A stretch of 64,000 bases of DNA, taken from the IMG/VR virus record IMGVR_UViG_3300031994_000011, positions 1-64,000 of that record; one strand, written 5' to 3'. This document shows positions 5,387 through 62,732 of this stretch, piece after piece. The notes under the pieces are model-generated. The model did no database searches. It was not told where the DNA came from and saw only the letters and a program-made list of their open reading frames with translations. The position numbers and the translations under genes are program-made. Every line of letters begins with the position of its first letter. Positions within the stretch are counted from its first letter, which is position 1. The stretch comes from a virus. Lineage: Duplodnaviria; Caudoviricetes.

Positions 5387-6193
5387 TTGATGAGTAAGAA
5401 GATTGAAATTTTTCAGCATTTTGAATCCGTTCTGGATGAGTTGATTAAGCGTTCGGTATTCTTCAAGACTTATCTCCAGTATCCCGAGTATATAGATAAT
5501 GAAGTTCTCGGCGGGCAGGGTGGTATTCCCGCTAATATTTCCCTTGCTACTGGTGTAACTAGGGCGTGTATTATTGATAATGATTATGATTGGGTAGTTA
5601 AGTTTGATATTGGAGAAGATGCGCGCGGCAGTGCTTGTGAGCGCGAGAATTATACTTACAAGCGCGCTCAGATGTATAACCTTTCTCAATATTTCTCTGA
5701 AGTAATTTATCTTGGTGTATATAGAAAGACTTATACGTTTTATCAGGGATGGAAAGTTGCTAGTACTCTTTACTATGACGATTTCAGTTATACTGATAAT
5801 GACTACGCGCGCAGCTTTTTTAAGTACAAAGATAAGTTCGGTTCTTTGGAACAAATTACTGTGTCAATCCCTCTGTATGCCTATCGTAAAGTTAATCAAG
5901 AAGGCTTCTATGCTAATTCTGAATGTACCAATGAAATTGAAAATGAAATTAGCAACACTCAGTCTCCATTGTCCGCAAAGAATAAGCAGGTTGCGATTAA
6001 CTTTATTAGTAATTACGGTGCACGCGAATATGAAAAGTTAACTGACTTCTTGTATGAAATGGACATTAACGATTTTCATAGTGGTAATGTTGGTTTTGTT
6101 GATGATAAATTTGTATTGATCGACTATGCTGGTTATTATGACCCCGATTGTGAGAGTAATGAAGAGGAGGAAAATGATAGATGGAACTCTTAA
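5387..6193 (+). CDS. protein-kinase-fold hypothetical protein
   Basis: GVTR...VVK, E helix, DFHSGNVG catalytic-loop-like and IDYAG DFG-like motifs. Confidence 0.6.
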   Translation: MMSKKIEIFQHFESVLDELIKRSVFFKTYLQYPEYIDNEVLGGQGGIPANISLATGVTRACIIDNDYDWVVKFDIGEDARGSACERENYTYKRAQMYNLSQYFSEVIYLGVYRKTYTFYQGWKVASTLYYDDFSYTDNDYARSFFKYKDKFGSLEQITVSIPLYAYRKVNQEGFYANSECTNEIENEISNTQSPLSAKNKQVAINFISNYGAREYEKLTDFLYEMDINDFHSGNVGFVDDKFVLIDYAGYYDPDCESNEEEENDRWNS

Positions 6194-7329
6194 ATTTTAT
6201 GAACGCGCATGAGGACTGGGAGCGGCTTCTATCTCAGCCTCCTTATTGCTTAACTATTAAGCATGATGGTGAATATGTTTTGTTGAAGTATGACCAGATG
6301 CTTAGTGATATGACTTTGGAAATTTGTCTTGAGGCGCGCGGCGCTATTTTTCGGCAGGATAATGAAGGCCATTGGTGGTGCGCGAGCTACGGTCTGAAGA
6401 AGTTTTTTAACTATAATGAAGTCTATTCTGACTTGAAGAATATTGATTGGAATAACTGTAGGGTTAGTGAAAAGGTTGACGGTAGTAACATCAGAATTTA
6501 TATGGATAATGGTGTTTGGCACGTTTCTACCTTGGGATGTATTGATGCATTCAAGGCCGAATTTGAAAATGGTTTGAGCTATGGCGATTTGGTTGTTAAG
6601 GCTTGCGGCGGCAACCTTGAGAATTTAACTAAGCAGCTCCAGCCTGGCTTCTGCTATATCTTTGAACTTACTGGCCCTAATAGAATTGTAATTAACTATG
6701 GTGATACTCCGTATTTGTGGTATCTTGGGCGGCGCAATCAGATTACTTTTAAGGAGAATTTTGATGAAGTAAAGTTTGAAGGATTGACTATTTTCCGGCC
6801 CGCAGTTTTTGAACTGAAGACTCTGGCAGCTTGTATTCATGCTATTGAAACTATGGGAGGGGATGAAGAAGGTTATGTAGTTACTTCCATTGATAAGAAT
6901 GGTGAGCCGCATAGAGTAAAGATGAAGGGTGCTGAATATCTGCGGCTTCATGGTTTGCGTTGTAATGGTACTCTGACTGTTACTAAGGTTTTGAAGATGT
7001 GGCGCGCCAACGAACTGGATGACTTTGTTAGTGCTTTCCCTGACTATCAGGAGTTTGTGAATAGCGTCTTTGATGGTATGAACCAGCTCGCGGAAGAAAT
7101 TGAATATAACTATGACGAAATTATAAAGACTGGCGGTGAAAGAAAGGATTTGGCGCGCATAGCTTATACCTATATTCCTCCTACCCCCGGTTATGTATTT
7201 CAGCGGCTTGATAATAAGGTAGAGTCTGGTTTGGATTATTTGAATACCTTGAGCACTACTAGACTGAGCAGCTATTTGGCTCGCTTTGTAAAAGATAAAG
7301 ACCATGTTGGGGTGGTGGAAGATGAGTAA
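6181..7329 (+). CDS. T4 Rnl1-type RNA ligase
   Basis: EARG, KFFNYNE, EKVDGS (motif I), EGYVV, VKMK. Confidence 0.88.
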   Translation: MELLNFMNAHEDWERLLSQPPYCLTIKHDGEYVLLKYDQMLSDMTLEICLEARGAIFRQDNEGHWWCASYGLKKFFNYNEVYSDLKNIDWNNCRVSEKVDGSNIRIYMDNGVWHVSTLGCIDAFKAEFENGLSYGDLVVKACGGNLENLTKQLQPGFCYIFELTGPNRIVINYGDTPYLWYLGRRNQITFKENFDEVKFEGLTIFRPAVFELKTLAACIHAIETMGGDEEGYVVTSIDKNGEPHRVKMKGAEYLRLHGLRCNGTLTVTKVLKMWRANELDDFVSAFPDYQEFVNSVFDGMNQLAEEIEYNYDEIIKTGGERKDLARIAYTYIPPTPGYVFQRLDNKVESGLDYLNTLSTTRLSSYLARFVKDKDHVGVVEDE

Positions 7330-47015: not shown

Positions 47016-47663
47016 ATGAGAAAGTACGAAAAAATTGAAACTATCTATGCTCGGGATACTCAAGGAACGAAGAAACTGATTCCTGGTGAGTTTAGAGATG
47101 AAACTATTCATTCGCTTGCTAATATTAGGTGGATTTGGACTGAAAAAGTAGATGGCACGAATATTCGCATTTATTGGGATGGACATAAAATCAGTTTTGG
47201 TGGTCGGACTGACTCAGCAATGATTCCTAGTCCTCTCATGAATCGGCTTAATGAACTATTTGGCGGTACAGTAAATGAGGAAGTATTTGAACAAATCTTT
47301 GGTGAAAAAGAAGTGATTCTTTTTGGCGAAGGTTATGGTAACAAAATTCAAAAAGTTGGAAAAGACTACTTGCCCGATAGTGTAAACTTTATTTTGTTTG
47401 ATGTACTTATTGGAGATAACTATCAGCCTAGAGGAACTGTTGAAAAAATCGCGGCAGCTTTTAATGTTCCTGTTGTTCCTATTGTTGGATATGGTACTCT
47501 ATATGATGCAATCAGTTATGTAGAGGCCAATCCTAAGTCTATTGTGGCGCAAGAACGTTGTAGCATGGAAGGTATTGTATGCAGGCCTGAAATGGAATTG
47601 CGCGATAGGTGCGGCAATAGGATTATCGTAAAAATTAAGTGGGAAGATTTTAAAACAATTTAA
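47016..47663 (+). CDS. Rnl2-like RNA ligase (adenylation domain)
   Basis: TEKVDGTN, LFGEGYG, FILFDV, EGIVCRP, IVKIK. Confidence 0.85.
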   Translation: MRKYEKIETIYARDTQGTKKLIPGEFRDETIHSLANIRWIWTEKVDGTNIRIYWDGHKISFGGRTDSAMIPSPLMNRLNELFGGTVNEEVFEQIFGEKEVILFGEGYGNKIQKVGKDYLPDSVNFILFDVLIGDNYQPRGTVEKIAAAFNVPVVPIVGYGTLYDAISYVEANPKSIVAQERCSMEGIVCRPEMELRDRCGNRIIVKIKWEDFKTI

Positions 47664-48978: not shown

Positions 48979-50517
48979 ATGAATGAACTTTTAAAGGCTC
49001 TTAAAGAAAATTTCAACACTACTCTTACTGAAAATGGCGCGACCACATATAAGTCTACACTTGATAGTGTATATGATATGTTCGCGCTGGGTGGCGCGTA
49101 TCGTGAACGCTCTGATGAAGATGTTATTATGCTTTTTAAAAAGGCATATCAGCAAGATCCTACGCTTGCTATGAAGTGTCTATTTTATCTTCGTGATGTA
49201 ACCGAAGGCCAAGGAGAAAGACGCTTTTTTAGAGTTATCATTAACTGGTTGGCGCGCACAATGCCAGAAGAAGCACTTAATTTCCTAAAGCAAATTCCAG
49301 AATATGGAAGATTTGATGACTTGTATTCACTTATTGGTGCTTCTATTGATGAGGATGTATTTCGTTTTATTAAATCTCAGTTAATTGCTGACCTACATAC
49401 TGATACACCTTCTCTACTTGCTAAGTGGCTAAAGTCAGAAAATGCTTCTTCTCCAGAAACTAAAAAGCTTGCTACAGAAACTAGGAAGCATCTAGGTCTT
49501 ACTTCTGCTCAGTATCGTCATATGCTTTCTATGCTTCGTAATAGAATAAAAATCGTTGAGACTCTTATGTCTCAAAATCGTTGGACTGAAATTGAATTTG
49601 ATAAAATTCCTAGCCGTGCTGGATTTATTTATCGTAAGGCATTTGCTCGTAATGAACTTATTGGCGATAAGTATGCCGAATTTATGAGTAAACCTAATAC
49701 TACGGTAAATGCGAGAACTCTTTATCCTTATGAAGTCGTTGAAAAAGCAGCTAAGCTAGCCAATGGTGGATGGGGTAGTCTTCCTTCTATTGATGATGTA
49801 GAAAGAATTACTATAAATAAATATTGGGACAATCTTACCGATTATTTCAATGGTGCTACTCTTAACGCACTTGCTGTGGTAGATACATCTGGCTCTATGT
49901 GGGGACAACCCATTAACGTAGCTATTTCTCTTGGCCTATATTGTGCGGATAAGGCAAATGGACCTTTTAAGAATCATTTTATTTCCTTTAGCCGCAATCC
50001 TAAACTAATTGAAACCGTAGGTGTAGATTTCTGTGATAAAGTTAATAGAATTTATCAGCAAAATTTGTGTGAAAATACTAACATTGAAAAAACTTTTGAT
50101 TTAATTCTAAATATCGCAAGAAAAAATAATTTATCACAAAAAGAACTACCTGAGTCTCTTATTATAATTAGCGATATGGAATTTGATGCAGCAATCAGTA
50201 ACTATGATTATTATAGAGAATCTAATGGGAATAGCAGCCTAATAGAGAATATTGAAAGAAAATGGAACGCGTTCGGATATAAAATGCCGAAACTGGTTTT
50301 TTGGAATGTTAATGCGCGCCATGATAATATTCCTATGAAAGAAAGAAATGGTATTACTTTTATATCTGGTTGTTCTCCTGTAATTTTTGATATGATTATG
50401 TCGGGAAAAACTGCTAAAGAACTCATGCTAGATAAACTACTATCTGATAGGTATGCTAAAATCTTTTCTGTAACTGATCATAAATATTTGCTATATAAAA
50501 ATCTTATAAATACTTGA
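48979..50517 (+). CDS. DUF2828-family (TROVE/Ro60-like + vWA) protein
   Basis: TENGA, LFYLRDV..GQGER, EYGRFDD, AKW, VVDTSGSM (MIDAS), ISDMEFD, VFWNV. Confidence 0.85.
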   Translation: MNELLKALKENFNTTLTENGATTYKSTLDSVYDMFALGGAYRERSDEDVIMLFKKAYQQDPTLAMKCLFYLRDVTEGQGERRFFRVIINWLARTMPEEALNFLKQIPEYGRFDDLYSLIGASIDEDVFRFIKSQLIADLHTDTPSLLAKWLKSENASSPETKKLATETRKHLGLTSAQYRHMLSMLRNRIKIVETLMSQNRWTEIEFDKIPSRAGFIYRKAFARNELIGDKYAEFMSKPNTTVNARTLYPYEVVEKAAKLANGGWGSLPSIDDVERITINKYWDNLTDYFNGATLNALAVVDTSGSMWGQPINVAISLGLYCADKANGPFKNHFISFSRNPKLIETVGVDFCDKVNRIYQQNLCENTNIEKTFDLILNIARKNNLSQKELPESLIIISDMEFDAAISNYDYYRESNGNSSLIENIERKWNAFGYKMPKLVFWNVNARHDNIPMKERNGITFISGCSPVIFDMIMSGKTAKELMLDKLLSDRYAKIFSVTDHKYLLYKNLINT

Positions 50518-50542
50518 CTTTCTTTTAAATTTATAGTATAAT
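50514..50542 (+). promoter_or_regulatory. sigma-A promoter driving the suppressor-tRNA operon
   Basis: TTGACT-N17-TATAAT. Confidence 0.85.
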
Positions 50543-50646: not shown

Positions 50647-50756
50647 TAAGAGATGGCTGAATGGTTAAGGCAGCCTACCGAAGAGTAGGCGTAGGACGTT
50701 CGATTCGTCTTTAGGTTGAGGTAAACCATAGTGGGTTCGATTCCCACTTCTCTTAA
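50647..50756 (+). ncRNA. tRNA-like RNA with non-canonical anticodon loop and a second T-arm
   Basis: Ser/Leu-type D-arm; GACG-TTCGATT-CGTC plus GTGGG-TTCGATT-CCCAC. Confidence 0.6.
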
Positions 50757-50759
50757 TAT

Positions 50760-50900
50760 TGGGGTGTAGCCAAATGGTAAGGCAACGGACTTATCAGGAT
50801 AGCATAACGCAATGCGCTCCGGCAGGAGAGAAGCGTGGGTCATAACCAGCTCCTGATGCAATGACTCCGTGATTTGCTGGTCCGATTCCAGCCACCCCAG
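50760..50900 (+). tRNA. tRNA-Gln(UUG) interrupted by a 69-nt tRNA-like insert (50793-50861)
   Basis: Removing the insert gives ACGGA-CTTTGAC-TCCGT with U1-A72. Confidence 0.85.
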
Positions 50901-50923
50901 CTATTTTATTATTGGAGGCTAAT

Positions 50924-51364
50924 ATGCGTCAAATTATTATTGTTCGTAAAGATTTGAATATGAATTCCGGTAAACTTGCGGCACAGGTGGCGCATGCTTC
51001 CTTGGCTTTTATTTCTAATGCTATTCGTAATTGCGTAGAATGTTCAAGTTTAAGTCAAAATTATCTTATAAGTTTGAAAATTCCAAAAGATGTATACGAA
51101 CAGTGGTTCTGTGGAATATTTACTAAGACCGTTTGTGAAGCCAAAAATCACAGACAAATAATGAAAGCTATATCTATTGCCGAAGAGATTGGTCTTAAAG
51201 AAGGCACAGATTTTTTTCTCATTAAAGATGCTTGCCTTACAGATCTAGAACCAGAAGAAATCGATGAAAATGGGCAAGGCCGTACTCTTACTTGTATTGG
51301 TTTCAGGCCTCTTGACGATGAGACAGCTTGGAAAATTTCTAAAAAATTTCAACTGTATCACTGA
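50924..51364 (+). CDS. pth2: peptidyl-tRNA hydrolase, Pth2 family
   Basis: QIIIVRKDLNMNSGKLAAQVAHAS, IKDACLT, TLTCIGFRP. Confidence 0.9.
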   Translation: MRQIIIVRKDLNMNSGKLAAQVAHASLAFISNAIRNCVECSSLSQNYLISLKIPKDVYEQWFCGIFTKTVCEAKNHRQIMKAISIAEEIGLKEGTDFFLIKDACLTDLEPEEIDENGQGRTLTCIGFRPLDDETAWKISKKFQLYH

Positions 51365-51444
51365 TGCTATTAGTGCCCAAATCATGTCTCCATGATTTAC
51401 TGGTCCAGACTCAGCTTTGCAACTTTTTATTTTAGGAGGTAATT

Positions 51445-52017
51445 ATGGATCTTAATAGTGATGCTAATTATGACAATAAATTTTATGAAGTTTATCCTTC
51501 TCTTGAGGTGTCAGAAGAAGTAAAAAAAGAAAATAAACGTCTTTGTGATACTTATCCTTTTTTAATTCCTTCTAATCGTTTTAGTGGAAAGCGCATCAAC
51601 AGTGGTGAGGAAGGATACTGGCCAGGGACTCCAGAAGTAATGCCACAATGGGACTATGAATATACTGAATTAGATGAAATGCCAGACGGTTGGAGAAAAG
51701 CATTTGGAGAACAAATGTGTCAAGAGATAAAGCAAGCACTTCTTGATGTAGGTGAAGTTGGAGAAAAATTACTTGATAGATATAGAATAGTACAAATTAA
51801 AGAAAAATATGGATATTTGCGTTGGTATGATAATTTTTCTACTAATAAAATTCAAGGAATAATTCGTAAGTATGAAACCATTAGTCAATATACTTGTATA
51901 CATTGTGGCGCGCCCGCAACTAAAATTACTCGTGGATGGATTATGCCGGTTTGTGATGCTTGCGTTCCAGAGAATACTGACACTTTGCCTGTTAAAGAAT
52001 ATTGGGAGAATTGGTAA
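51445..52017 (+). CDS. hypothetical phage protein (QIKEKYGYLRWY, CxxCG)
   Basis: AGGAGG RBS; common phage motif. Confidence 0.75.
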   Translation: MDLNSDANYDNKFYEVYPSLEVSEEVKKENKRLCDTYPFLIPSNRFSGKRINSGEEGYWPGTPEVMPQWDYEYTELDEMPDGWRKAFGEQMCQEIKQALLDVGEVGEKLLDRYRIVQIKEKYGYLRWYDNFSTNKIQGIIRKYETISQYTCIHCGAPATKITRGWIMPVCDACVPENTDTLPVKEYWENW

Positions 52018-52088
52018 TGAAATTGTATACAAGTTATTGGGCACTGATAAAATAAAATCTTATATTGGTGAATTAAAGGAGAATTTAA

Positions 52089-52307
52089 ATGTATATAATT
52101 CCTTGTCCTAAATGTGGAAGAATGCCTAAAATTTATGAATGTATTCCAATAAAAGAGAAAAGACATAGAATAATTTGTTGTCCTAATCTTTGTTCTGTTA
52201 TCTCTACAAAAGAAAATGGATTTTTTAAATTTTATGTCACATATTTAGGAAATGGAGATGACAATACTCTTTTTAAAGAATGGAATAAAATGTTATCTAT
52301 TGACTAA
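52089..52307 (+). CDS. small zinc-ribbon (Lar-like) protein
   Basis: PCPKCG...CCPNLC...EWN. Confidence 0.55.
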   Translation: MYIIPCPKCGRMPKIYECIPIKEKRHRIICCPNLCSVISTKENGFFKFYVTYLGNGDDNTLFKEWNKMLSID

Positions 52308-52358
52308 TAATAAAAATTATATTATAATATATATGTAAGAAAGAGAAAGGAGAAAGAA

Positions 52359-52733
52359 ATGAAAATTATTGATTTTGAGCGTAAGGGCAATATAGTTCGT
52401 TTTTATCTTGGAGAAGACAGTCTTACTGAATGGTATGGCGATGATTGGGATGATGTGCCCTACGAGCATAATGCTGGAAGAGTTTATGATGAATTTATCT
52501 CCTCCTATAAAGATATAGCTTTTCCTTTTGATTTCACAGTGTTGGAACCTAAGAATGATTATCATTTCAATGGAAATTCTCCTTGGAGTAAAAAAGATAT
52601 GATTGCACGAAAAGTACCATGTATTATAGTAGCTCCAAAGGATGATGAATTCTGGGCAGATGAAAGTTTTATACTTTATGTTGCAAATGATAATGTTCAA
52701 AGATTTTACTTTGGCGATAAAATGGAACCTTAA
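52359..52733 (+). CDS. hypothetical phage protein (WYGDDWDDVPYEHNAG)
   Basis: Promoter and RBS. Confidence 0.75.
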   Translation: MKIIDFERKGNIVRFYLGEDSLTEWYGDDWDDVPYEHNAGRVYDEFISSYKDIAFPFDFTVLEPKNDYHFNGNSPWSKKDMIARKVPCIIVAPKDDEFWADESFILYVANDNVQRFYFGDKMEP

Positions 52734-52763
52734 TATTTAATATATAAAATATAGGAGAAAATT

Positions 52764-53315
52764 ATGAATAGTATGCTTAATGGAATGTTTGGAAAAATTG
52801 CCCCTGGCATGTGCCGTGTCTCTATGAATGGTGAAATTGCTATTAAAACCTCTAATGGTTATAAGACATATAATGTAGAAACTGGTACGCTAACTAATTG
52901 TGATAATTTCGCATTTGATATTGGTGAAGATTTCTTCTTCATTATCCCAACCAATAAAGTTCACAAGGGAGACATTATTCTCGCGGGCGGTAAACCTCGT
53001 TGCGTAATTGAAGCCGCGGCGAATGAAATTAAGACATTCTGCTATGAGGATGGTACTATTGGAACTATTGTTCCCGAACACCACATGTTTATGGGTAAGC
53101 AGTATTTCTATGGTAAGATTGTCTCGATGTTCGGTAATATGATGAGCGAAAAGGGTGGCATGAATAACATGATGAAGTATATGATGATGTCTGAAATGAT
53201 GAAAGGCAACAGCAATACTAATTCTATGCTACCAATGATGTTCATGATGAACGGCGGCCTTAACTTTGACGGAATTTTTGATATGGACGAAGAGAAAGAA
53301 AAGGAGGATAAGTAA
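52764..53315 (+). CDS. hypothetical protein with Met-rich C-terminus
   Basis: First gene of a three-gene operon with vWA and AdSS-like genes. Confidence 0.75.
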   Translation: MNSMLNGMFGKIAPGMCRVSMNGEIAIKTSNGYKTYNVETGTLTNCDNFAFDIGEDFFFIIPTNKVHKGDIILAGGKPRCVIEAAANEIKTFCYEDGTIGTIVPEHHMFMGKQYFYGKIVSMFGNMMSEKGGMNNMMKYMMMSEMMKGNSNTNSMLPMMFMMNGGLNFDGIFDMDEEKEKEDK

Positions 53316-53317
53316 GT

Positions 53318-54166
53318 ATGGGTGGCGGTACATGGACTACCACAGCTTATAATGCTAGTATCAAAAGCATGGGCTTCAAGAACGCAACCTCTGTAAGTTA
53401 TACTAGTAATATCCAGTCGATTTATAAAGAAAATCATCTACACCCTCTGCTGAATCCTTATGGAGTTACTCGTGAATGTCGCGACACGGAAGAGCATCCA
53501 GAAACAATTCCGGTTATTCTCGCGCTAGATGTTACTGGAAGCATGGGACGGGCAGCCGCAATGTGCGCGGGAAAACTAGATGAAGTAATGCAGGAACTTT
53601 ACTCAAAAGTAAAAGATGTAGAGTTTCTAATGATGGGCATTGGCGATTTGAGTTATGACGACGCGCCAATCCAGGCTTCACAATTTGAAAGCGACATCCG
53701 TATTCTAGACCAGACTACAAAGATTTATTTTGAAGGTGGTGGTGGCGGCAATTCGTTTGAATCCTATACTGCCGCTTGGTATTTTGGTCTACATAACACC
53801 GAGCTTGATTGTTGGAAACGTGGAAAGAAAGGTGTCATCATCACACTCGGTGATGAACCACTAAATCCATATCTTCCCGGTCATGATTTAAGTAAAGCAC
53901 TTGGATGCCCCGCACAGGATGTTAATACCCAAGAACTTTATAAAGAAGTCTGTGAAAAATTTGATGTATATCATATTGCTATTACCAATGAAAGTAGTTA
54001 TAGGCATTACGATGAAGAAATTAAGAACACTTGGGGCAAACTTCTAGGCCAACATTTAATCATCGCGTCTAGTGAAGAACTACCAAAGGTAATCGGTGAA
54101 ATTGTAGCAGAACATGAAAATGGCATTAGTACAATTAAGGTAACAGGGGAAGGAATTAGTTGGTAA
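53318..54166 (+). CDS. vWA-domain protein
   Basis: MGGGTW start; LALDVTGSMG MIDAS; EGGGGGN..ESY; TLGDE. Confidence 0.85.
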   Translation: MGGGTWTTTAYNASIKSMGFKNATSVSYTSNIQSIYKENHLHPLLNPYGVTRECRDTEEHPETIPVILALDVTGSMGRAAAMCAGKLDEVMQELYSKVKDVEFLMMGIGDLSYDDAPIQASQFESDIRILDQTTKIYFEGGGGGNSFESYTAAWYFGLHNTELDCWKRGKKGVIITLGDEPLNPYLPGHDLSKALGCPAQDVNTQELYKEVCEKFDVYHIAITNESSYRHYDEEIKNTWGKLLGQHLIIASSEELPKVIGEIVAEHENGISTIKVTGEGISW

Positions 54167-54167
54167 T

Positions 54168-55244
54168 ATGGAAGTCAAAGTTGTAATTGGCAGTAACTAT
54201 GGCGATGAAGGCAAGGGACTAGTATCAGCAAATCTCGCGCGCGTGGCAAAGCAAGAAAATAAAAAAACTCTAACCGTATTCTATAATGGTACTACACAGA
54301 GAGCACATTCATTTGGAGATACAGTACGTCATTGTACCGCCGCTGGCGAAGGATTTGGTAGTGATACTTATTATCATCCTATGTTTGTAGTTGATCCAAT
54401 TGCACTTTGGCTTACCCAGTCTTATGTGTATATTGACCCAAATTGTCGTGTAATTCTACCTTGCGATGTTATGGACAATCGCAAGATAGAGAAAAGCCGC
54501 GGTGACAAGCGTCATGGCTCATGTGGATTAGGTCTATTCGCTGCGGTAAAACGCAGCAAAAAATTAGAAGATAATGTTGTAATTAATGATTTTCATAGTC
54601 CATATAATCTATATTTTAAATTAAAAGAAATTGAACGACGTCATCCAACAGAAAAAGATACGCTATATAATATTGATATGTTTATGCGGGCGGTCGCGTG
54701 GATTGTGAATAATTGTAGAATTATTACATTTGACAACTTGGTAAAAAATCATCAGTATGATACAATTATTTACGAAGGCGGACAAGGACTACTACTTGAC
54801 CAAACCAATATGGATGATTTTCCGCACTTAACTCCTTCCAGTGTAGGTATGTACAATATTACACATGATATTAATAAATTAAATTGTACGCCTGAACTAT
54901 TCTATGTTTCGCGCACTTATATGACACGACATGGCGCGGGCCCCATGGAATTTGAATGTAAAAAAGAAGATATTAATCCAAGCATTGTTGACAATATTAA
55001 TCAACCAAACGAATGGCAAGGCACTTTAAGATTTGGTTATATTGATTTAGAAACTCTTTATAAACGTATACAAAAAGATGCCGCGTTATATAATAATAAT
55101 TCAAATATTAATCTTGTTTTTACTCAATTAAATTACACTAATAATAAAATTGAAACAAATAAAGGCCGAGTAGATATTATTAAACCAAACTTTTGTTCAA
55201 AAATTTATGTTTCTACTGATAAATTTTATATATATAATATTTGA
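54168..55244 (+). CDS. adenylosuccinate-synthetase-like protein (divergent PurA family)
   Basis: GSNYGDEGKG, HGSCGLG, EGGQGLLLD, TRHGAGP, WQGTLRFG. Confidence 0.85.
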   Translation: MEVKVVIGSNYGDEGKGLVSANLARVAKQENKKTLTVFYNGTTQRAHSFGDTVRHCTAAGEGFGSDTYYHPMFVVDPIALWLTQSYVYIDPNCRVILPCDVMDNRKIEKSRGDKRHGSCGLGLFAAVKRSKKLEDNVVINDFHSPYNLYFKLKEIERRHPTEKDTLYNIDMFMRAVAWIVNNCRIITFDNLVKNHQYDTIIYEGGQGLLLDQTNMDDFPHLTPSSVGMYNITHDINKLNCTPELFYVSRTYMTRHGAGPMEFECKKEDINPSIVDNINQPNEWQGTLRFGYIDLETLYKRIQKDAALYNNNSNINLVFTQLNYTNNKIETNKGRVDIIKPNFCSKIYVSTDKFYIYNI

Positions 55245-55291
55245 CTTCTAATAAAAATTATATTATAATATATAGGTAAGAAAAAGGAGGA

Positions 55292-55504
55292 ATGAAAATG
55301 GAACTTGAAAAACTTGATCGTGCGATGAATAATTTGATGGAAAAATACGATTGGCATGATACAAATAAACAAGAAGATTTCTTCCTTGAAAATTTGACCC
55401 GTGATTTGATGGAGCTTCTTTCTGAGCATGGCGTACCTGTTATTAAATGGGCCGAAGAGATTAAAAAAACGAATGAGTTTGTAGCAAATCTTAAGCGGGC
55501 ATAA
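55292..55504 (+). CDS. hypothetical protein
   Basis: Promoter and AAGGAGG RBS; 3' end overlaps tRNA-Arg. Confidence 0.6.
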   Translation: MKMELEKLDRAMNNLMEKYDWHDTNKQEDFFLENLTRDLMELLSEHGVPVIKWAEEIKKTNEFVANLKRA

Positions 55505-55566
55505 TTCAATGGATAGAATAACAAACTTCTAATTTGTATATCAGGGTTCAATTCCCTGTGCCTGTA
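55495..55566 (+). tRNA. tRNA-Arg(UCU)
   Basis: ACAAA-CTTCTAA-TTTGT; T-arm CAGGG-TTCAATT-CCCTG. Confidence 0.88.
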
Positions 55567-55569
55567 CTC

Positions 55570-55950
55570 GCGACATTAGTTCAGTTGATAGAGCTTTTGG
55601 CTTATGTCCAGCCATTGCGACTATTTTTAAGAATAGGTGCTTTCGTAACGAATCAAGGATATGGTAAGAGTGCAGTTTGATGAGCTGTACCAAAAGACTT
55701 GGGCGCCAAAAGGCAGAAGTTAAATGGTATTGAAAACCAGCCTATTTAAAATGAATAGCGGCTAATCTTTGCGGAGATTAGGAAGGATGAAAACCACTTC
55801 CGCCGAACTGTCGGTAGTAGCAAACACCTATGCGTAGGTAAAGGCAAACATTCGGGTCTACGTCTTTAATTTGGTTAGAAGCGTTAAGGGAACCAAGTCT
55901 GGGCAAGCAGCAGCAAACTGCGGCAGAGAAGGTAAGCAGGCTTCTCATTA
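55570..55950 (+). ncRNA. ORF-free structured RNA candidate beginning with a tRNA-like 5' half
   Basis: GCGACAT-TAGTTCAGTTGATAGAGC D-arm; CTTTTGGC/GCCAAAAG helix; several hairpins. Confidence 0.4.
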
Positions 55951-55951
55951 T

Positions 55952-56099
55952 GCGCCATTAGCTCAGTTGGTAGAGCACGTGACTTTGGGGCGGTAGTGTA
56001 AAGAACACGCTAGGAAAGCAAGGGCCTAGAAAATGAAGGGCGGTACTAAGACGCCCCGCCATAATCACGGCGTCCGCGGTTCAATTCCGCGATGGCGCA
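55952..56099 (+). tRNA. tRNA-Lys(UUU) interrupted by a 75-nt tRNA-like insert (55987-56061)
   Basis: Removing the insert gives CGTGA-CTTTTAA-TCACG. Confidence 0.85.
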
Positions 56100-56192
56100 T
56101 AAGTAAAATTTAAAAGTTAATTTCTTGACTTTAAGTAAAAATTCTGCTATAATATTTATGTAAGCAAGAGAGAAAGGATTGGAGGAAAGAGT

Positions 56193-56390
56193 ATGGAAAA
56201 CATTCTTAACTGTCAGTCTGGTTCTAAATTCATGGGTAACGAACTGAATTACTGGTGTCAGGAACAGATTATGAAACATCTTAGCTATGAGAAAGAAGCT
56301 CGTTACATCTACTCACACTTCAATTTTGGTGATGAAACTATGTACGAACTCGTTAGGTCGGGAGATATGATTGGTTTTAAAAAGATTTAA
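56193..56390 (+). CDS. hypothetical protein
   Basis: Promoter and GGAGG RBS. Confidence 0.6.
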   Translation: MENILNCQSGSKFMGNELNYWCQEQIMKHLSYEKEARYIYSHFNFGDETMYELVRSGDMIGFKKI

Positions 56391-56392
56391 TT

Positions 56393-56466
56393 GCGGATGT
56401 AGTTCAATGGTAGAATTTCAGCCTTCCACGCTGATTACACGGGTCCGATTCCCGTTATCCGCTCCA
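56393..56466 (+). tRNA. tRNA-Gly(UCC)
   Basis: TCAGC-CTTCCAC-GCTGA; U73; encoded CCA. Confidence 0.92.
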
Positions 56467-57720
56467 TTGGCGAAAGCCAAGACGAACGCCATAAGTCTTT
56501 AAAGTTTTCAGTCTTTCTAAAAACTGGCGGCAGTCCTAAAGCATATGGACATTAAATAAATAGCTTGACCAACCATTTTAGGTCAGATAAAATGGTGCGC
56601 TACACTTCGGAAATGGGAAGTGGGGATAAGTAAAGACCAGATTGAGATACACGTTGGGTGGTAAGTCCTATATAGGCCGTAATTCCAAGTACGTGGGCCG
56701 CCTCAAAACAAGAAGCGAATGGGTAAAATTGAGATGAGTCGTCTTAACTGCTTCACGCGCAAACTGAATGGTGCCGCATAGCCAGATTGCTCGGCGCGTA
56801 ATAAAAGAAGAGCAAAATAAGTGCTTTGTAATGAACGATAAAGTTGGTATGAAACGTTCCAGCCATTACAACCGCACATCGTTCGCGGTATATTAAGTAA
56901 GCGGTCTCGGCAAGCAGGGGCAAACTGCTGCAACTCTGGTAGGCAGGCAGAGTAACTGGATACAGACCCAGTATAAAAAGGTGCCGCGCTTATAAGCCGC
57001 AAGTTCGCAATAGCTTATACAGTTGCCCACTCTGTAAAAGGAGGCGCGCTGATAGACCGCAAGTATAAATAGTCTATTGCCACTAAGCCAAAGTGGGATA
57101 TAAATGAGAGCGGTAGACATCCTAACAAGAATGTTACGACGTATAGGACAAGGCTCCATCTAAATAGATGGGAAGCGCTATATAATAAGGTGCCCAAATG
57201 ACTACTAGGCAGTTTGAACTGCTAGCAGAGATGTACACTCTGATAAAAGTAAGAATGGGTTAAATGGAGTTTGAAGAACAGCCAATTGCAGAAAATGCTG
57301 TATAGTCATATCACCGAATGAAAGTTTAAGCGACATGTAATGTCGTCGGCTATGACGAGCGCAAACTGAAAGGGTTATGTACTATACCCATATTGCTCGG
57401 CGCAGTATAAAAAGGAGCAAAATAATGTACTACTAGTCAGCGGGTAAAGTGGAAATGAGTCGTTTCCACGACTAGTCACGGCTGAAAAACGGGATGGAAG
57501 GAAAATAATGGGTGAAGTCCTTACTGATTGTTAACAAATTAGAAAAGCGGCAGAGATGCCCTCCGCACCCGTCATACTATGTAGGCCAAAATGCGACCGC
57601 TGTAAACGGTTAGGGTGAAAACGAACCCTTGACAATGAATGTAGGAACAGCATTCTGACGCAGTGTGAGTGGATGAAATTTCCCTCCCCAGGAGGCGCGC
57701 CCTGGGTTATCAAAACACCC
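56467..57720 (+). ncRNA. large structured non-coding RNA candidate (GOLLD/ROOL-like context) with internal duplicated domain
   Basis: 1.25 kb with no plus-strand ORF, raised GC, many hairpins, flanked by tRNAs. Confidence 0.6.
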
Positions 57721-57724
57721 ATAT

Positions 57725-57795
57725 GCTCTGATAGTGTAGTGGAAAGCACGCTCCGGTTTGACGGGGAAGGATTGGTTCGAGTCCAATGAAGAGCA
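57725..57795 (+). tRNA. tRNA-like gene, anticodon indeterminate (6-nt loop GTTTGA)
   Basis: Good D- and T-arms; imperfect acceptor stem. Confidence 0.55.
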
Positions 57796-57945
57796 AACAG
57801 TTGACACGTATCTGTATAAAAAATGTGAGAGATAAAGCTGATGAAAGGCAAACATAGAAATTAAAAATTCGTTGTTATTATTGTTGGCGCAATAATAACT
57901 AGTCAGCGGCATCTCGTTGTTCCGGTGCGCCAACACTGGAATTAT

Positions 57946-58022
57946 GACCCCATAGTGTAGTTGGCTAACATATCTGTCTGTCACGCAGAAGATCGCGGGA
58001 TCATAACCCGCTGGGGCCGCCA
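57946..58022 (+). tRNA. tRNA-Asp(GUC)
   Basis: TCTGT-CTGTCAC-GCAGA; G73; CCA; variant T-loop ATCATAA. Confidence 0.85.
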
Positions 58023-58023
58023 T

Positions 58024-58577
58024 TCGCATCGCCTCCTTAACGATGCAAGTCTGCGGAACATACGGATTCTCACTAAACTACTACCGGCATATTTGGGAGA
58101 AGTGCTTATGAATGAACTTTCTAAGTAATACTTCATAATCAAATATGATATGTAGCACGCGGCTTAGCAGCAGACTATAATAAAAAGACAGGCGAAGTAA
58201 GTGAAAATAAAATATAAAAGAACAGAACGTATATAATACAATGTGAGATCGTATGCTCACATGGCTATGCTTCCTAACCATCGTTTGGTATATTCCCGCG
58301 CGGTGCCTTACGCAAGAAGCAAATAAAAGTGTCCGAATGGCTGAACGGACGTTAAACCGATAATGGGCAAATCTTCCGTATGGTAAAACCAAGAAGCCAT
58401 ACTAACAGACAAGGTTTTGGCGCGTGACAGCGAAAAGAGGGAGTCGCCCGTAAGGGAACGGTCATACCTCTTTAGCTGAACAGGGCGGTGGAACGCGAGT
58501 GGTTGGTAATTATATGGGACTAATCTATCTGGAGTTCCTGCGGCTCAAGGATAGGGTGCGGCACCTTACGCCGCTAT
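58024..58577 (+). ncRNA. second ORF-free structured RNA candidate (~550 nt)
   Basis: No plus-strand ORF; multiple hairpins; ends in a mini acceptor/T-arm element (GCGGC...TAGGG-TGCGGCA-CCTTA-CGCCGC). Confidence 0.5.
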
Positions 58578-58579
58578 AT

Positions 58580-58651
58580 GCCGGTCTAGCGTAGTGGTCA
58601 CGCGGCGGTCTGTTAAACCGTTATAGGCAGTTTCGAATACTGCGGCCGGCG
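58580..58651 (+). tRNA. tRNA-Asn(GUU)
   Basis: GCGGT-CTGTTAA-ACCGT; G73. Confidence 0.8.
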
Positions 58652-58804
58652 TTATCTTTCCTGAGCAAATGCGGAGATTAAACCGATGTGCGGTTGGCTG
58701 ACCTTAAAGCTAATTTTGGGGTAGCATCGGAGTAATTAACCGATGAGAAAATGCGCTCCATCGCAAGCCCAATATATTTTAATATAATCTATGGAGGGAT
58801 TATA

Positions 58805-59659
58805 ATGATAGGAATTTATAAAATAACTAATAAAATTACTGGAAAAAGTTATATTGGACAAAGTGTAAATATTGAAACGAGATGGTCACAACACAAATCA
58901 GTAAGCCGTTCTTATGAAACTTTAGATGGAAACGAACTACATAAAGATATATTAGAATTAGGAGTAGAAAATTTTTCATTTGAAGTAATAGAATAGATTA
59001 GTGTTGATAAATTAGATTAGCGAGAAATATATTGGATTTAGTATTATGATACTTACTATAATGGTTATAACCATACATTAGGTGGCAATGGAAATGTAAG
59101 ATTAGATTATAAGAAAATACAAGAATTATGGTCTAATGGTTTTACCGCTAAAGAAATTGCTAATATACTTAATACTTCTAGTTGTTCTATTAATATTGCT
59201 TTAACAAATTTAAACATTACAACCGCCGAAAAACGAGAACGAAGTAAAGAATTAATAGCAAAAGCTTATAATCCATATAAAAGAACAGTATTAAAAATAG
59301 ATATTAATACTAATGAAATAATTGAAATTTTTGATTCTGTCTCTGCCGCGGCTAAAGCTATTGGTATAAATAGAGCAACTTTTCGAGAAGGATTATAGAA
59401 ACATAATAATATATATAAAGGATATAAATGGTTTATTAACACTGTAACAGAAAAAACTCGTAATTTTTCATCAAAACAAGTTATTAAATTAGATCCAAAT
59501 ACAAAAGAACCTTTAGAATATTTTGAATCAGCAAGTGCTGCTGCGCGTGCGGTGAACCTTGCTGGGGCAACATTGATATGTCGTGCTTGTAAAAATGGTA
59601 CAAAATCTAGAGGCTTTTATTGGAAATATAAACAAAAGGAGAAATATAATTATGAGTGA
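58805..59659 (+). CDS. GIY-YIG homing endonuclease with NUMOD1-like repeats (TAG-recoded)
   Basis: GIYKITN...YIGQS...R...H; FEVIE*I...LD*REIYWI*YYDT..NGYN; two F.S...AA....GYKW-type modules. Confidence 0.88.
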
Positions 59660-60191
59660 ACCTAGATTAAAAATTTTACCCCCTTGGGTTATTATCATCC
59701 GTAAACTTTAGGCGCTATTTGATGGCGACCCTCAGATTGCTTTTAATTGTGATTTTTCAGGCGTACATCCTACTGTTACACTAGCTTGTAATAATGGCGA
59801 TAAGGTCACGGCGCTACTACAAATTCTACCACAGGAAGTTAATTTTGGCAATGTAACGCTAGACGTTATTGTTGATGGCATTCCTAGTAATCGTGCTTTC
59901 ACAAGTAAGGTAGAACTGTTCGATACCGCATTTAAAGGAAATCCTGCTTATGCTTATTCTGTTTGTCCTGCTGAGGAAGGTTATCAGTGGATTGGAACAA
60001 CTTATGTAGTGTTTAACAACTGTGTTGTACAGTTTGATGCTGATAATCTAAATGATTGCCATGGTGTAATTAGTACTCTTTATGAGACAATTGCAACTGA
60101 ACTTTTAACTGGTCCCGCTACTACTGGTGTTTTCTATAATACTAACGTATAGCGCGCGAATCTTGGATATCCTCTTGGCGAATGGCCGTAA
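59652..60191 (+). CDS. conserved hypothetical phage protein (two TAG)
   Basis: PPW...KL*ALFDGDPQI...FKGNP...VVQFDADNL; AAGGAG RBS. Confidence 0.75.
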
Positions 60192-60196
60192 TTAAA

Positions 60197-60368
60197 TATG
60201 TGGTGGCGGAATAGGTAGACGCTTTCATGTAAGGGGGACGCTCAACCCGTCTTCTGTGGCAAGAAACGACCACAGTGACAGATGCACCGGTATTTCGGTA
60301 TTGATGCACACCAAAGAGGGCAAAGGGACACGGAGAACCTATGTGAGGTGCAAATCCTCACCCGCATT
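60197..60368 (+). ncRNA. tRNA-scaffold RNA A
   Basis: TGGCGGAATAGGTAGACGC D-arm and GTGAGG-TGCAAAT-CCTCAC T-arm enclosing ~110 nt of hairpins. Confidence 0.7.
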
Positions 60369-60379
60369 TAAAAGAAATA

Positions 60380-60498
60380 TATGACGTGACGAAATAGGTA
60401 GACGTGCGAAACACGGAGAGAATAATCACCTCATCGCAGAAACTGCTTTATCCGTGTGCTGATGGTTTCTATGTATGGTGCAAATCCATACCGTCATT
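60380..60498 (+). ncRNA. tRNA-scaffold RNA B
   Basis: ATGACG/CGTCAT acceptor; same D/T arms; ~65-nt branched core. Confidence 0.7.
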
Positions 60499-60572
60499 TA
60501 GTCTTTTAAAGTTATTTGTAATAGTTAAATAACTCTCGTTTTGGTGAAGTAAAATATTCGGGGTATTTAATG

Positions 60573-60814
60573 TATATGGTGGCGGAATAGGTAGACGCTA
60601 AGCTACGGTTGGCTGATAATGAGAACAGGTGTGGTTCGATTCCACGTAGAGAGAAGCTCTGCATTTGGTTCAACTCCAGATGCATAAAACCCAGAGGGTG
60701 GGTGCCTGAGTAAAGTGTAGCAGAAGATGACGCTATAATGTTGATGCGCACAACGTATAGTAGTTAGTTGCGAAACGAAACTATTTCCTGTGAGGTGCAA
60801 ATCCTCACCCATAT
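60573..60814 (+). ncRNA. tRNA-scaffold RNA C
   Basis: ATATGG/CCATAT acceptor; same D/T arms; ~190-nt core containing two extra T-loop hairpins. Confidence 0.7.
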
Positions 60815-60932
60815 GCCAGATTAGCTCAATTGGTAGAGCAATCGCCTTGCGGAAATACTAGAAATAGTCAGTGCAATTCTGATGTTTCCGACTATAAGCG
60901 ATAGGCTTTCGGTTCAAGTCCGGAATCTGGCT
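60815..60932 (+). tRNA. tRNA-Thr(UGU) interrupted by a 45-nt mini-tRNA insert (60850-60894)
   Basis: Removing the insert gives ATCGC-CTTGTAA-GCGAT. Confidence 0.85.
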
Positions 60933-60956
60933 TATTAAAATAAAAAGGAGTTAAAT

Positions 60957-61160
60957 ATGAAAACTTTTAAAGATACCTATAAGGATACTTATAACTTTGA
61001 ATATTGGCCTGATGAAAATAACGATGAATCTTCTGTAAGATTAAGTTATGATGTAAATGGCGCACTTACAATAGAAGGGTTTCAAGAAATGTGTCGTTCG
61101 TTTGCTTTTGCCCTTGGTTTTGAAACAAAAAATATTGACAAATATTTCCCAACCGAATGA
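60957..61160 (+). CDS. hypothetical protein
   Basis: AAGGAG RBS. Confidence 0.6.
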   Translation: MKTFKDTYKDTYNFEYWPDENNDESSVRLSYDVNGALTIEGFQEMCRSFAFALGFETKNIDKYFPTE

Positions 61161-61238
61161 CGGAATGTAGCTCAGCTGGTTTAGAGCGCTTGTCTGATAA
61201 ACAAGAGGTCAGTAGTTCAAATCTACTCATTCCGACCA
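61161..61238 (+). tRNA. tRNA-Ile(GAU)
   Basis: CTTGT-CTGATAA-ACAAG; ACCA end. Confidence 0.92.
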
Positions 61239-61595
61239 TGAGGGAAGTTCTCTCTTATGCGTAGACCTCCCCGACAGGAGCGAGCAAAGCCTCTAGGAAT
61301 AGAGACAATTCAGCAAATAAAAATGAGAAAATTATGTATGGGTGCTCCTCTACAGACATAAAAATGTCTTTAAGAGAAAAAACTTACGACTAGCTAGCGT
61401 AATAATGGATAGTTTAGGGTTTTATTCCATTAATTGCGTCTGTTCACTCGACTAGCAGTGTACCACAACAAACAACATAAAACTTTACAAGAGGGAAGTT
61501 AGTGGTTTCAACTCTTTTTATAGCTATAAAAATCCCATAAAAACTTGGACATAAAAGTCTAAAGAAGCTAAGTAAGGGTTTATATGCTTCAAATT

Positions 61596-61681
61596 GGGAG
61601 GATACTCAAGTGGCTGAAGAGACGCGCCTACTAAGCGCACAGAGGTACATGCCTGCGTGAGTTCGAATCTCACTCTTCCCG
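61596..61681 (+). tRNA. tRNA-Ser(ACU), unusual A34
   Basis: CGCGC-CTACTAA-GCGCA; long variable arm; G73. Confidence 0.8.
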
Positions 61682-62100
61682 TCTAATATTTGACTTCTTT
61701 TTAAAATTATAATATAATAATTATATAAGAAAGAGAGGAGAGAATAAAATGAAAGTTATTTTCTTGAACAAAAAGGAAAAAGAAACTCTTATTAAATTAT
61801 TAGCTCCACTAATTATAACACCAGGATGTTCATATGAATTAACAACTATTTTAGAAAAACTAGATTGGAAAACATATGAATTAGTTTTTAAACATCCTGA
61901 ATTATTTGACAATAAATAAAAATTATATTATAATTATTATGTAAGGCGAGAACAGCAAAACTTTAATAGAACAAATCTTTAGTGAATAGATTCCTTCTTT
62001 AATATCGCCTTGTTTATAAGTTATTTAGGAGCTTTGATACGGTATTAAGCTTAATACTCGCCGCAGACTGCAGTGAACAAATCCTAAATAACTATTTTAT

Positions 62101-62232
62101 GCGGATATGGTGGAATAGGCAGACACCTCAGACAGCAGGTGCGCAGTCGTTACAATTGGGGCAGCACCAATACCTGCTACCATTAAAATCTGATGTCCTC
62201 TGGACGTGCCGGTTCGAGTCCGGCTATCCGCA
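62101..62232 (+). tRNA. tRNA-Leu(UAA) interrupted by a 49-nt mini-tRNA insert (62134-62182)
   Basis: Removing the insert gives TCAGA-CTTAAAA-TCTGA; long variable arm; A73. Confidence 0.88.
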
Positions 62233-62288
62233 TTTAAGGGATTTATCCCTAATTAAATAATAGGCCGAAAGGCCAAGGAGAAAAAATT

Positions 62289-62732
62289 ATGAAAAAGATT
62301 TTTAGTATTTTTTTGGTCTTCGTTATGCTCTTTGTAGCTAATGCGGCCTACGCAGCTCCGCCATCTAGAGATCTAAAAGATTTATACAAAGTAAATCCTT
62401 AGATTTTAATGGATGTCGGAGTTGATGTTTCAAAAACAGTTTATCCAATTGTCATTGATTTTTATGATGCTTTTCTAATTATGGGACTAGGCCCCGACTT
62501 TCATCTTGATGATGTTGTGATTCTATATCTTGATAATATGTATCAACTAGTGAATTTTAAATTCCCAATACTTTATAATCAAAATTCTGGCGTAATGGCT
62601 ATTTTCTTTGGCTCTGGGATTTGGATTCGCACTGGTATGATACTTGAAGATGGTTCTGTAACTTTTGATATGACTGAAGTTTATGGTGACGAAGTAGAAA
62701 TGTTTATTTTTTCAAATCAGGTGATGGAATGA
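62289..62732 (+). CDS. secreted hypothetical protein (one TAG)
   Basis: MKKIFSIFLVFVMLFVANAAYA signal peptide in frame with ORF 62409. Confidence 0.7.

Follow-up and report, generated by a model that had tools for sequence, protein, structure and literature searches.

The window analysed here, 64,000 nt long, opens the genome of an uncultured phage (IMG/VR record IMGVR_UViG_3300031994_000011), which has 171,958 bp and direct terminal repeats. Four tRNA genes of this window are interrupted inside the anticodon loop by short inserts that are themselves tRNA-shaped, each starting at base 1 of an acceptor-like stem and ending 4 nt after it, in NCCA or a variant thereof. This nesting of one tRNA in another, first noticed in an original prediction made from the letters of the window, is confirmed by our analysis, and lies far beyond what could be expected by chance. 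As to its meaning we lean, with moderate confidence, toward the view that each insert is a tRNA-shaped RNA that interrupts the anticodon loop of a functional phage tRNA and would be cut out of it by enzymes that process tRNA ends, the outer halves being then sealed by an RNA ligase. The original prediction had gone further, in speaking of a candidate new intron class; as an observation this was overstated. The four genes and their inserts are:

50760..50901, plus strand: tRNA-Gln(UUG) gene; exon 1 50760-50792, exon 2 50862-50901, insert between positions 34/35
50793..50861, plus strand: Gln insert, 69 nt
55952..56099, plus strand: tRNA-Lys(UUU) gene; exon 1 55952-55986, exon 2 56062-56099, insert between positions 35/36
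55987..56061, plus strand: Lys insert, 75 nt
60815..60932, plus strand: tRNA-Thr(UGU) gene; exon 1 60815-60849, exon 2 60895-60932, insert between positions 35/36
60850..60894, plus strand: Thr insert, 45 nt
62101..62232, plus strand: tRNA-Leu(UAA) gene, class II; exon 1 62101-62133, exon 2 62183-62232, insert between positions 32/33
62134..62182, plus strand: Leu insert, 49 nt

None of the four split genes was detected by a default tRNA scan. The Rfam tRNA model spans all of them (model positions 1-71) with one large insertion each, at 50.3 bits for Gln (50760-50900), 52.3 for Lys (55952-56099), 54.5 for Thr (60815-60932) and 40.9 for Leu (62101-62232). ARAGORN in intron mode also recovers all four; it misnames two of them (Lys is called Gln, and Thr is called Ala), because it forces the intron next to position 37, and the anticodons assigned in the original prediction are the correct ones. 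When the inserts are removed in silico, ARAGORN in normal mode reads canonical tRNA-Gln(ttg), tRNA-Lys(ttt), tRNA-Thr(tgt) and tRNA-Leu(taa), and in every case exact removal restores a 7-nt anticodon loop.

Insert-free alleles in other phages provide independent proof of the insert boundaries. Two contigs (L001 and L002, where L-numbers designate phage contigs or loci compared with the window) share 85% DNA identity with the window in the adjacent gene block, and carry a tRNA-Leu allele without insert (L001, 5385-5473; L002, 5212-5300) that aligns to 62095-62133 and then directly to 62183-62232. For Gln, the window's exon-2 start directly follows the exon-1 end in 101 of the 112 phage loci that have this end; the corresponding insert-free junction is present in 110 of 116 loci for Thr, and in 18 of 24 for Lys, with the window's own 8-nt exon-2 start in 13 of these 18. 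Since the flanking bases differ, none of the four junctions can be shifted, and the predicted coordinates and insertion points stand without change.

The anatomy of the inserts can be described as follows. In the Gln, Thr and Leu inserts the first seven bases pair 7/7 at offset 0, in the Lys insert 6/7, and in each a 4-nt tail follows the stem (GCAA in Gln, GCCA in Lys, ACTA in Thr, ACCA in Leu). The Gln insert is a mini-cloverleaf, in which 50793-50799 pair with 50851-50857 (7/7) ahead of the tail at 50858-50861; it also contains a pair of small inner hairpins and a T-arm-like hairpin that is bulged (3/5 pairs in the strict register) and has a loop of 7 nt. The 7-bp stem of the Thr insert (60850-60856 with 60884-60890; tail 60891-60894) encloses two hairpins, one of 4 bp that is capped by GAAA, and one resembling a T-arm (60867-60883; 5 bp, 7-nt loop), which abuts the 3' strand of the stem; likewise, in the Leu insert (stem 62134-62140 with 62172-62178, 7 bp; tail 62179-62182) the stem is abutted by a T-arm-like hairpin (62155-62171) of 5 bp, with GGCAGCA as its loop. 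The Lys insert has a 6-bp acceptor stem (55987-55992 with 56052-56057; tail 56058-56061), a D-like hairpin, and a 5-bp anticodon-like hairpin with the invariant 10-nt loop AAAGCAAGGG; it has no regular T-stem. The anatomy given in the original prediction is upheld, in that stem and tail are there in all four inserts; the T-arm (5 bp, 7-nt loop) abutting the stem is perfect in Thr and Leu, bulged in Gln and absent in Lys, so that in terms of predicted structure the minihelix shape recognised by RNase P is exact in Thr and Leu, approximate in Gln, and reduced in Lys to stem and tail. When the Gln, Thr and Leu precursors are folded at full length, the minimum-energy structure of each retains all four outer tRNA arms, along with the inner stem and an unpaired tail.

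In order to place these features on a statistical footing, we scanned IMG/VR with the exon-1 ends of the four genes and with one flanking protein, and ran ARAGORN in intron mode on the resulting 265 loci (about 2.5 Mb). Introns were predicted in 21 of 1734 predicted tRNAs: 10 of these, from eight contigs, are inserts of the same kind, in genes for Asn(GUU) (two), Thr(UGU) (two), Lys(UUU) (two), Leu(UAA), Glu(UUC) and Gln(UUG) (two); three are group I-sized (in L010, L032 and L173), and the remaining eight are spurious or of unclear type. Together with the four of the window, the ten outside inserts make up a set of 14, in which 13 pair at least 6/7 at offset 0 and carry a 4-nt tail; shuffled inserts fall into this register at a mean of 0.17/14 and a maximum of 3/14, and the other registers score nil, except for the same helix slid inward. 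Thus the start at base 1 and the NCCA-like 4-nt tail, predicted for the window (4/4), hold in 13/14 overall. Two features of the set limit this count, as several of the 14 inserts are mutually homologous, and hence not independent, and a 1-nt ambiguity in the boundaries of the Thr inserts of L010 and L015 was settled in favour of the rule. A perfect 5-bp stem with a 7-nt loop abuts the 3' strand in 9/14 inserts, which yields a 12-bp acceptor/T stack as in tRNA, and the second and fourth positions of the tail (C74 and A76 in tRNA numbering) are C and A in 13/13. A strict minihelix descriptor applied to the window recovers the Thr and Leu inserts and three tRNAs; however, it is not specific in such AT-rich DNA (16 matches versus about 8 in shuffles), and therefore we make no claim on the absence of free-standing minihelices in the window.

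The only introns known to us from the tRNA genes of bacteria and their viruses are self-splicing ones of group I. It is hardly credible that the inserts are an intron of a known type, be it group I, a bulge-helix-bulge intron cut by EndA, or a segment bounded by a pair of small self-cleaving ribozymes. The anticodon-loop site is indeed typical of both group I and bulge-helix-bulge tRNA introns, and our loci do contain introns of group I size (198-210 nt), in phage genes for tRNA-Leu(UAA) and tRNA-Thr(UGU) (L010:1845-2120; L032:8709-9000; L173:2344-2629, minus strand), in L010 even alongside tRNA-shaped inserts in one tRNA array. Group I introns, however, have about 200 nt or more and a conserved catalytic core (P3-P8), while the inserts lack such a core and, with 45-75 nt, reach a quarter of the size of the group I introns found alongside them; the earlier judgement that they are too short for group I is upheld. 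Apart from tRNA, no Rfam family, Intron_gpI included, matches them, even at E up to 5. Of the four pairs that make up the central helix of a bulge-helix-bulge, 10 of 12 inserts, including the window's four, form 1-2, which is the chance level; the junctions, instead of lying in 3-nt bulges, are found at the base of the stem and 4 nt after its 3' strand, and the genome encodes neither EndA nor RtcB. As for ribozymes, the covariance models for hammerhead, twister, HDV-like/theta, hatchet and pistol find no match in 50500-62500 at E up to 5, and the inserts are too varied in sequence and size for one ribozyme class.

The relatives of the inserts bear more directly on their nature. Members of a family of RNAs related to the Lys insert were sought by scans for the conserved loop and for the D-like arm, and a covariance model (R1) was built from seven of them. 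R1 identifies 16 copies in the loci searched, with a score of 100.6 bits for the copy at 55987-56061 of the window; in the phage's own genome it finds the nested copy and no second Lys-type copy. The family is characterised by an acceptor stem, a D-like hairpin, a 5-bp hairpin whose 10-nt loop is invariant in all members from the loop scan, and an NCCA end. Three members are nested, with their ends at G1 and at the final CCA: one between 35/36 of tRNA-Lys in the window, one in the homologous tRNA-Lys of L016 one base further 3' (36/37), and one, 93% identical, between 35/36 of tRNA-Trp(CCA) in L277. In at least eight contigs members of the family stand free, adjoining ordinary tRNA genes, with the same first and last bases. 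The free-standing copies are:

10072-10146 of L266: free-standing copy
170-244 of L337: free-standing copy
3395-3469 of L289, minus strand: free-standing copy
8792-8866 of L293, minus strand: free-standing copy
1375-1449 of L395, minus strand: free-standing copy
5945-6018 of L359, minus strand: more distant free-standing copy, identical in L362 and L364
761-833 of L286, minus strand: more distant free-standing copy
12966-13039 of L275: more distant free-standing copy

Rfam recognises none of the scanned free-standing copies of L266, L289 and L359, either as tRNA or as anything else. In the alignment fitted to R1, 98.4% of the cells are paired, and in 12 of 15 pairs both partners have changed, figures that are upper estimates because the alignment was fitted to the structure of the model; none of 500 shuffles scores as high, and slid controls reach at most 58%. 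Because G-U pairs make the stems strand-specific, the structure is selected at the level of RNA. The covariance model and search of relatives that the original prediction had proposed thus yield a Lys family that covaries, alleles with and without the insert, and compensatory changes. Judged from these comparisons, the boundaries are a property of the insert and not of the host tRNA, and the Lys insert derives from tRNA-like genes that stand alone elsewhere; such free-standing relatives, it would seem, must be matured like tRNAs. In a subgroup of free-standing Lys-type RNAs from the rumen, positions 7 and 65 covary as G/A or A/G, i.e. as a purine-purine combination.

The inserts had been described as unrelated in sequence. 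This is not wholly so, since the Lys and Leu inserts have in common a non-canonical T-loop motif, GGCRGYA. The T-arm of the Leu insert (loop GGCAGCA) occurs in identical form in a free-standing tRNA-Met(CAU)-like gene of L398, a 375-kb metagenome contig; a Leu-type insert in L040, located at 34/35 (window: 32/33), has the loop GGCAGTA; and L001 (3807-3880) and L002 (3597-3670) contain a free-standing gene resembling tRNA-Ala(UGC), whose T-loop is GGCGGTA and which ends in ACCA. The tRNA-like genes of L001, L002 and L398 (~2870-2940) all have 7-nt anticodon loops, the non-canonical T-loop and an encoded ACCA, and ARAGORN missed both the Ala(UGC)-like and the Met(CAU)-like genes. Hence the Leu insert, too, probably derives from a free-standing tRNA-like gene. 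An exact 19-mer of the Thr insert has no other copy in viral contigs, and BLAST within the fetched loci, the only place where the Gln insert was sought, finds no relatives of the Gln, Thr or Leu inserts. Also found in these loci were 5' halves of tRNA-Lys or tRNA-Gln genes broken inside the anticodon loop (L009:3949; L013, minus strand; L019, minus strand; L023:1002; L114:1064), which are followed by an ORF-bearing insert and form a class distinct from the tRNA-shaped inserts.

The mechanism that we favour can be outlined in the light of established properties of tRNA-processing enzymes. A 7-bp acceptor stem stacked on a 5-bp T-arm and followed by NCCA is the minimal element measured by RNase P and by RNase Z/BN: such a minihelix is an RNase P substrate, RNase P leaves a 3'-OH upstream, and cleavage just 3' of an encoded CCA is a property of Thermotoga maritima RNase Z and E. 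coli RNase BN. The products of these enzymes carry the 3'-OH and 5'-phosphate needed by the RNA ligases Rnl1 and Rnl2, which join precisely such ends, and T4 Rnl1 reseals nicked anticodon loops. The precursor would thus fold as a tRNA within a tRNA; the host RNase P would cut 5' of insert base 1, leaving a 3'-OH on exon 1; an endonuclease, for which RNase Z/BN-type enzymes are candidates, would cut after insert A76, leaving a 5'-phosphate on exon 2; the acceptor, D and T arms of the outer tRNA would hold the two halves together; and a phage ligase of the Rnl1 or Rnl2 type would seal them. The RNase P cut is suggested by the established substrate rules and by the free-standing relatives, which must be processed in this way; as these relatives lie in tRNA arrays and have the same end bases, the notion that tRNA end-processing enzymes define both cuts is strengthened. 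What we infer here is the excision itself, the enzymes responsible, the end chemistry and the ligation.

Two ligases are encoded in the window at the positions given in the original prediction (6181 and 47016), and both proved real. They belong to a wider set of RNA-processing genes:

2767..3642, plus strand: polynucleotide kinase with HD phosphohydrolase domain (Pnk-HD); PF13671 and PF01966; phrog_505
4523..5311, plus strand: Thg1-like protein (tRNA 5' end repair); PF04446, E=8.3e-32; phrog_4717, E=3.4e-79
6181..7329, plus strand: T4 Rnl1-type RNA ligase, candidate exon sealer; PF09511, E=6.6e-15; phrog_562, E=6.4e-44
45998-46588: metallophosphoesterase
47016..47663, plus strand: Rnl2-type RNA ligase nucleotidyltransferase domain, 215 aa; PF09414, E=4.9e-18; phrog_548, E=2.9e-22
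48946-50517: DUF2828/DUF7788 RNA-binding protein; phrog_850; beside the tRNA genes
50912-51364: Pth2

Several observations weigh against the favoured mechanism. The second cut, after A76, is its weak point: an enzyme that cuts exactly after the encoded CCA is needed, because exonucleolytic 3' trimming would destroy exon 2, and many bacteria trim CCA-containing precursors with exonucleases. The phage genome does not supply a candidate for this cut, as it contains no gene for an RNase Z-type fold, for RtcB, for EndA (PF01974; archaeal controls were detected) or for a CCA-adding enzyme. With respect to the inserts, four of the 13 tails are NCAA or NCTA rather than NCCA (9/13), the tail of the L168 insert has 2 nt and breaks the rule, the Lys insert and its closest relatives lack the T-stem, and the minimum-energy fold of the single Lys precursor sequence favours a competing hairpin; the pairing figures of the Lys family, as noted above, are upper values. 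Finally, an ATP-dependent RNA ligase is present in 4/4 complete insert-bearing genomes, but in 30 complete tRNA-rich controls PF09414 is found in 13 and PF09511 in 4, so that about half have a ligase; these controls were only partly screened for inserts, and the genome-wide tRNA search misses about half of the insert-bearing genes. The association of inserts with ligases is not significant and only suggestive.

The gene content leaves room for another scheme, in which a dedicated endoribonuclease cuts both junctions, leaving a 2',3'-cyclic phosphate and a 5'-OH, Pnk-HD or the metallophosphoesterase heals the ends, and Rnl1 seals them, much as T4 does with its tRNA-Lys after cleavage by PrrC. 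A complete set for such a pathway is encoded (Pnk plus HD, metallophosphoesterase, Rnl1 and the Rnl2-type ligase), and would be unneeded if the ends were 3'-OH and 5'-phosphate; Pnk-HD would be expected to heal the ends if the cuts left a 2',3'-cyclic phosphate and a 5'-OH, and no known enzyme class is established for the A76 cut in the host. On the other hand, we found no candidate nuclease in the genome, EndA being absent and ORF 5387-6193 kinase-like; repair genes of this kind are ordinarily explained as counter-defence against anticodon nucleases; and the RNase P-substrate shape of the inserts, from base 1 to the CCA as in the free-standing genes, is more simply explained by general tRNA enzymes. 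On balance we consider this scheme unlikely. ORF 5387-6193, which lies between the Thg1-like and Rnl1 genes, overlaps the start of the latter with its end, belongs to no known family and has 57 viral homologues, had been entertained as the missing nuclease, and was dropped on account of its kinase-like invariant residues K72, E87, D229, H231, N234 and D246.

A different challenge to the favoured mechanism comes from the possibility that the inner tRNA-like RNA is the only product, the outer halves never being rejoined and serving at most as a folding scaffold, or being altogether inactive. The free-standing relatives show the inner RNA to be a gene in its own right, and the inserts are rare (14, set against 1734 predicted tRNAs of the sampled loci) and patchy among close relatives, as would fit recent selfish insertions. 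The state of the outer genes speaks differently. All 15 in-silico spliced forms (the 14 inserts of the set above plus that of the L277 tRNA-Trp(CCA)) are canonical tRNAs, in which removal leaves a perfect 7-nt loop with an anticodon that matches the tRNA body, and the four genes of the window are the only ones in the genome for Gln(UUG), Lys(UUU), Thr(UGU) and Leu(UAA). Compensatory changes also maintain the host T-stems: between the Thr hosts of L010 and L015 the pair 50:64 changes from C:G to U:A, and between the Lys hosts of the window and L016 two pairs change with pairing kept, so that the host T-stems stay paired while the inserts diverge to at most 87% identity. Promoter-like sites precede these genes:

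50514..50542, plus strand: near-consensus sigma-70-type promoter from a consensus scan, upstream of the suppressor-tRNA/tRNA-Gln cluster (pattern match only)
55241-55269: similar promoter-like site, before Arg and Lys (pattern match only)
61906-61934: similar promoter-like site with 12/12 matches, before Leu (pattern match only)

In addition, a repeated block of about 50 nt with a TTGACT-17-TATAAT promoter-like site (at 44879, 48027, 50509, 52300, 55235 and 61684), which the window shares with L001 and L002, heads tRNA clusters and early genes. Four dead hosts in one genome, each behind a strong promoter-like site, would be an unlikely occurrence. These features, as read from the DNA, argue against the outer genes being decayed pseudogenes, and we regard the inner RNA as sole product as quite improbable.

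The idea that the inserts shield tRNAs from host anticodon nucleases, or time their activity, was also part of the original prediction, which had in addition observed that all four hosts have U34. This pattern is true of the window, but fails in the relatives, where Asn(GUU) and Trp(CCA) tRNAs are hosts as well, and nothing in our data supports a protective or timing role. The interpretation of the inserts as products of tRNA end-processing and ligation fares better: it is supported in part, through the anatomy and the ligases, and would now appear plausible and better grounded than before.

It is useful to compare the nested tRNAs with the closest known systems. The Lak megaphages (Devoto et al. 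2019, Nat Microbiol, PMC6784885; preprint 10.1101/356790) are described as having 'enigmatic' introns in their tRNAs. There, too, short conserved inserts interrupt the anticodon loops of phage tRNAs, some alleles carry the insert and others lack it, the excision point predicted by the tool does not coincide with the true one, and TAG is recoded (PMC6784885). They differ in that the paper gives no boundary rule, mechanism or free-standing relatives (PMC6784885), the comparison being one of descriptions rather than of sequences, and in that the Lak phage genome has 540 kb versus 172 kb here.

The repair of T4 tRNA-Lys after its cleavage by PrrC, carried out by Pnkp and Rnl1, offers an analogy, in that a nicked anticodon loop would stay folded and be resealed by a phage Rnl1, and Rnl1 and Pnk are encoded here as well; in T4, however, the break is damage that a host nuclease inflicts, leaving a 2',3'-cyclic phosphate and a 5'-OH, whereas the present case concerns an encoded insert that needs two cuts. 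Archaeal and eukaryal tRNA introns (EndA/TSEN, with RtcB or Trl1) share with the scheme proposed here the protein-dependent removal of a short insert followed by ligation, and those of archaea also occur at non-canonical positions, like the inserts described here; they differ in their reliance on a bulge-helix-bulge, EndA and RtcB, none of which is found here, where recognition would depend on the tRNA-like shape of the intron itself. We know of no natural case in which cuts by RNase P and RNase Z/BN release an intron, and no description of the mechanism was found in the literature covered, which excludes most subscription journals. It is possible, and we put it forward tentatively, that the inserts represent a third route of tRNA splicing, a protein-dependent one, in bacterial viruses, in which RNase P and an endonuclease cutting after CCA would release a tRNA-like intron as a second product and an ATP-dependent RNA ligase of the phage would rejoin the outer tRNA. 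With regard to origin, it is pure speculation that a ligase once stitched a mature tRNA-like RNA into an anticodon loop cut by a nuclease, the result being later copied to DNA; the idea comes from the fact that the inserts coincide with the exact predicted mature form (base 1 to A76) of RNAs that are free-standing elsewhere, and sit at varying positions of the loop. No reverse transcriptase was found in the phage genome.

The genomic setting of the split genes deserves some comment. The tRNA genes of the whole genome are all confined to 45-62 kb. A megablast search against GenBank phages found no close relative, and a distant search returned only generic tRNA matches. Plus-strand genes at 19485-44183 are open only with TAG as a sense codon (for example, three ORFs of 1418, 898 and 2028 aa contain 21, 23 and 22 TAGs, respectively), and stop-to-stop ORF coverage rises from 59% to 85% once TAG is read as sense. 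A tRNA with a CUA (suppressor) anticodon is encoded at 50570-50643, and the early, RNA-repair and tRNA-region genes contain no in-frame TAG. Between this tRNA and tRNA-Gln lies a 110-nt tRNA-like gene (50647-50756; Rfam tRNA 24.7 bits, under the cut-off) that combines a class II-type D-arm with an anticodon loop of 6 nt, and whose 41-nt variable region holds a second hairpin with a canonical T-loop (TTCGATT).

Other features of the region are recorded here for completeness. The tRNA at 57724-57796 has a 6-nt anticodon loop (GTTTGA), a score of 32.4 bits and two mismatches at the foot of the acceptor stem; 61595-61683 is a class II tRNA-Ser with the anticodon ACT (A34); and the Rfam DUF3800-I RNA motif matches 57281-57386 (57.3 bits; gathering score 44.2), in a tRNA-rich, ORF-poor stretch. 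Directly upstream of the tRNA array, 54168-55244 encodes an adenylosuccinate synthetase homologue, possibly PurZ-like, and a dCMP-deaminase-like ORF (3890-4351) lies inside the RNA-repair cluster; the two together hint at a modified nucleotide metabolism. In the related tRNA array of L277 there is a sub-threshold match (12607-12717) to YrlA, a Y RNA-like RNA (34.9 bits; gathering score 69), which, with the DUF2828/DUF7788 protein, hints at a possible Ro/Y-RNA-like module.

Relative to the original prediction, what is new in this study is the recurrence of a single element in more than one host tRNA and at more than one loop position, the existence of free-standing relatives with identical ends, the covariation of the family, the proof of the boundaries from insert-free alleles, and the failure of the tests for group I, bulge-helix-bulge and known ribozymes. 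Since a default scan misses all four genes and intron mode misnames two, phage tRNA repertoires and the analyses of codon supply derived from them are biased. If the proposed mechanism is true, a new splicing route would exist, served by RNase P, a nuclease acting at tRNA 3' ends and an RNA ligase, phage RNA ligases would gain a routine job beyond the repair of damage, and the 'enigmatic' megaphage tRNA introns of 2019 would be explained. The free-standing relatives, with their invariant 10-nt loop, would in turn represent an unstudied family of phage tRNA-like RNAs.

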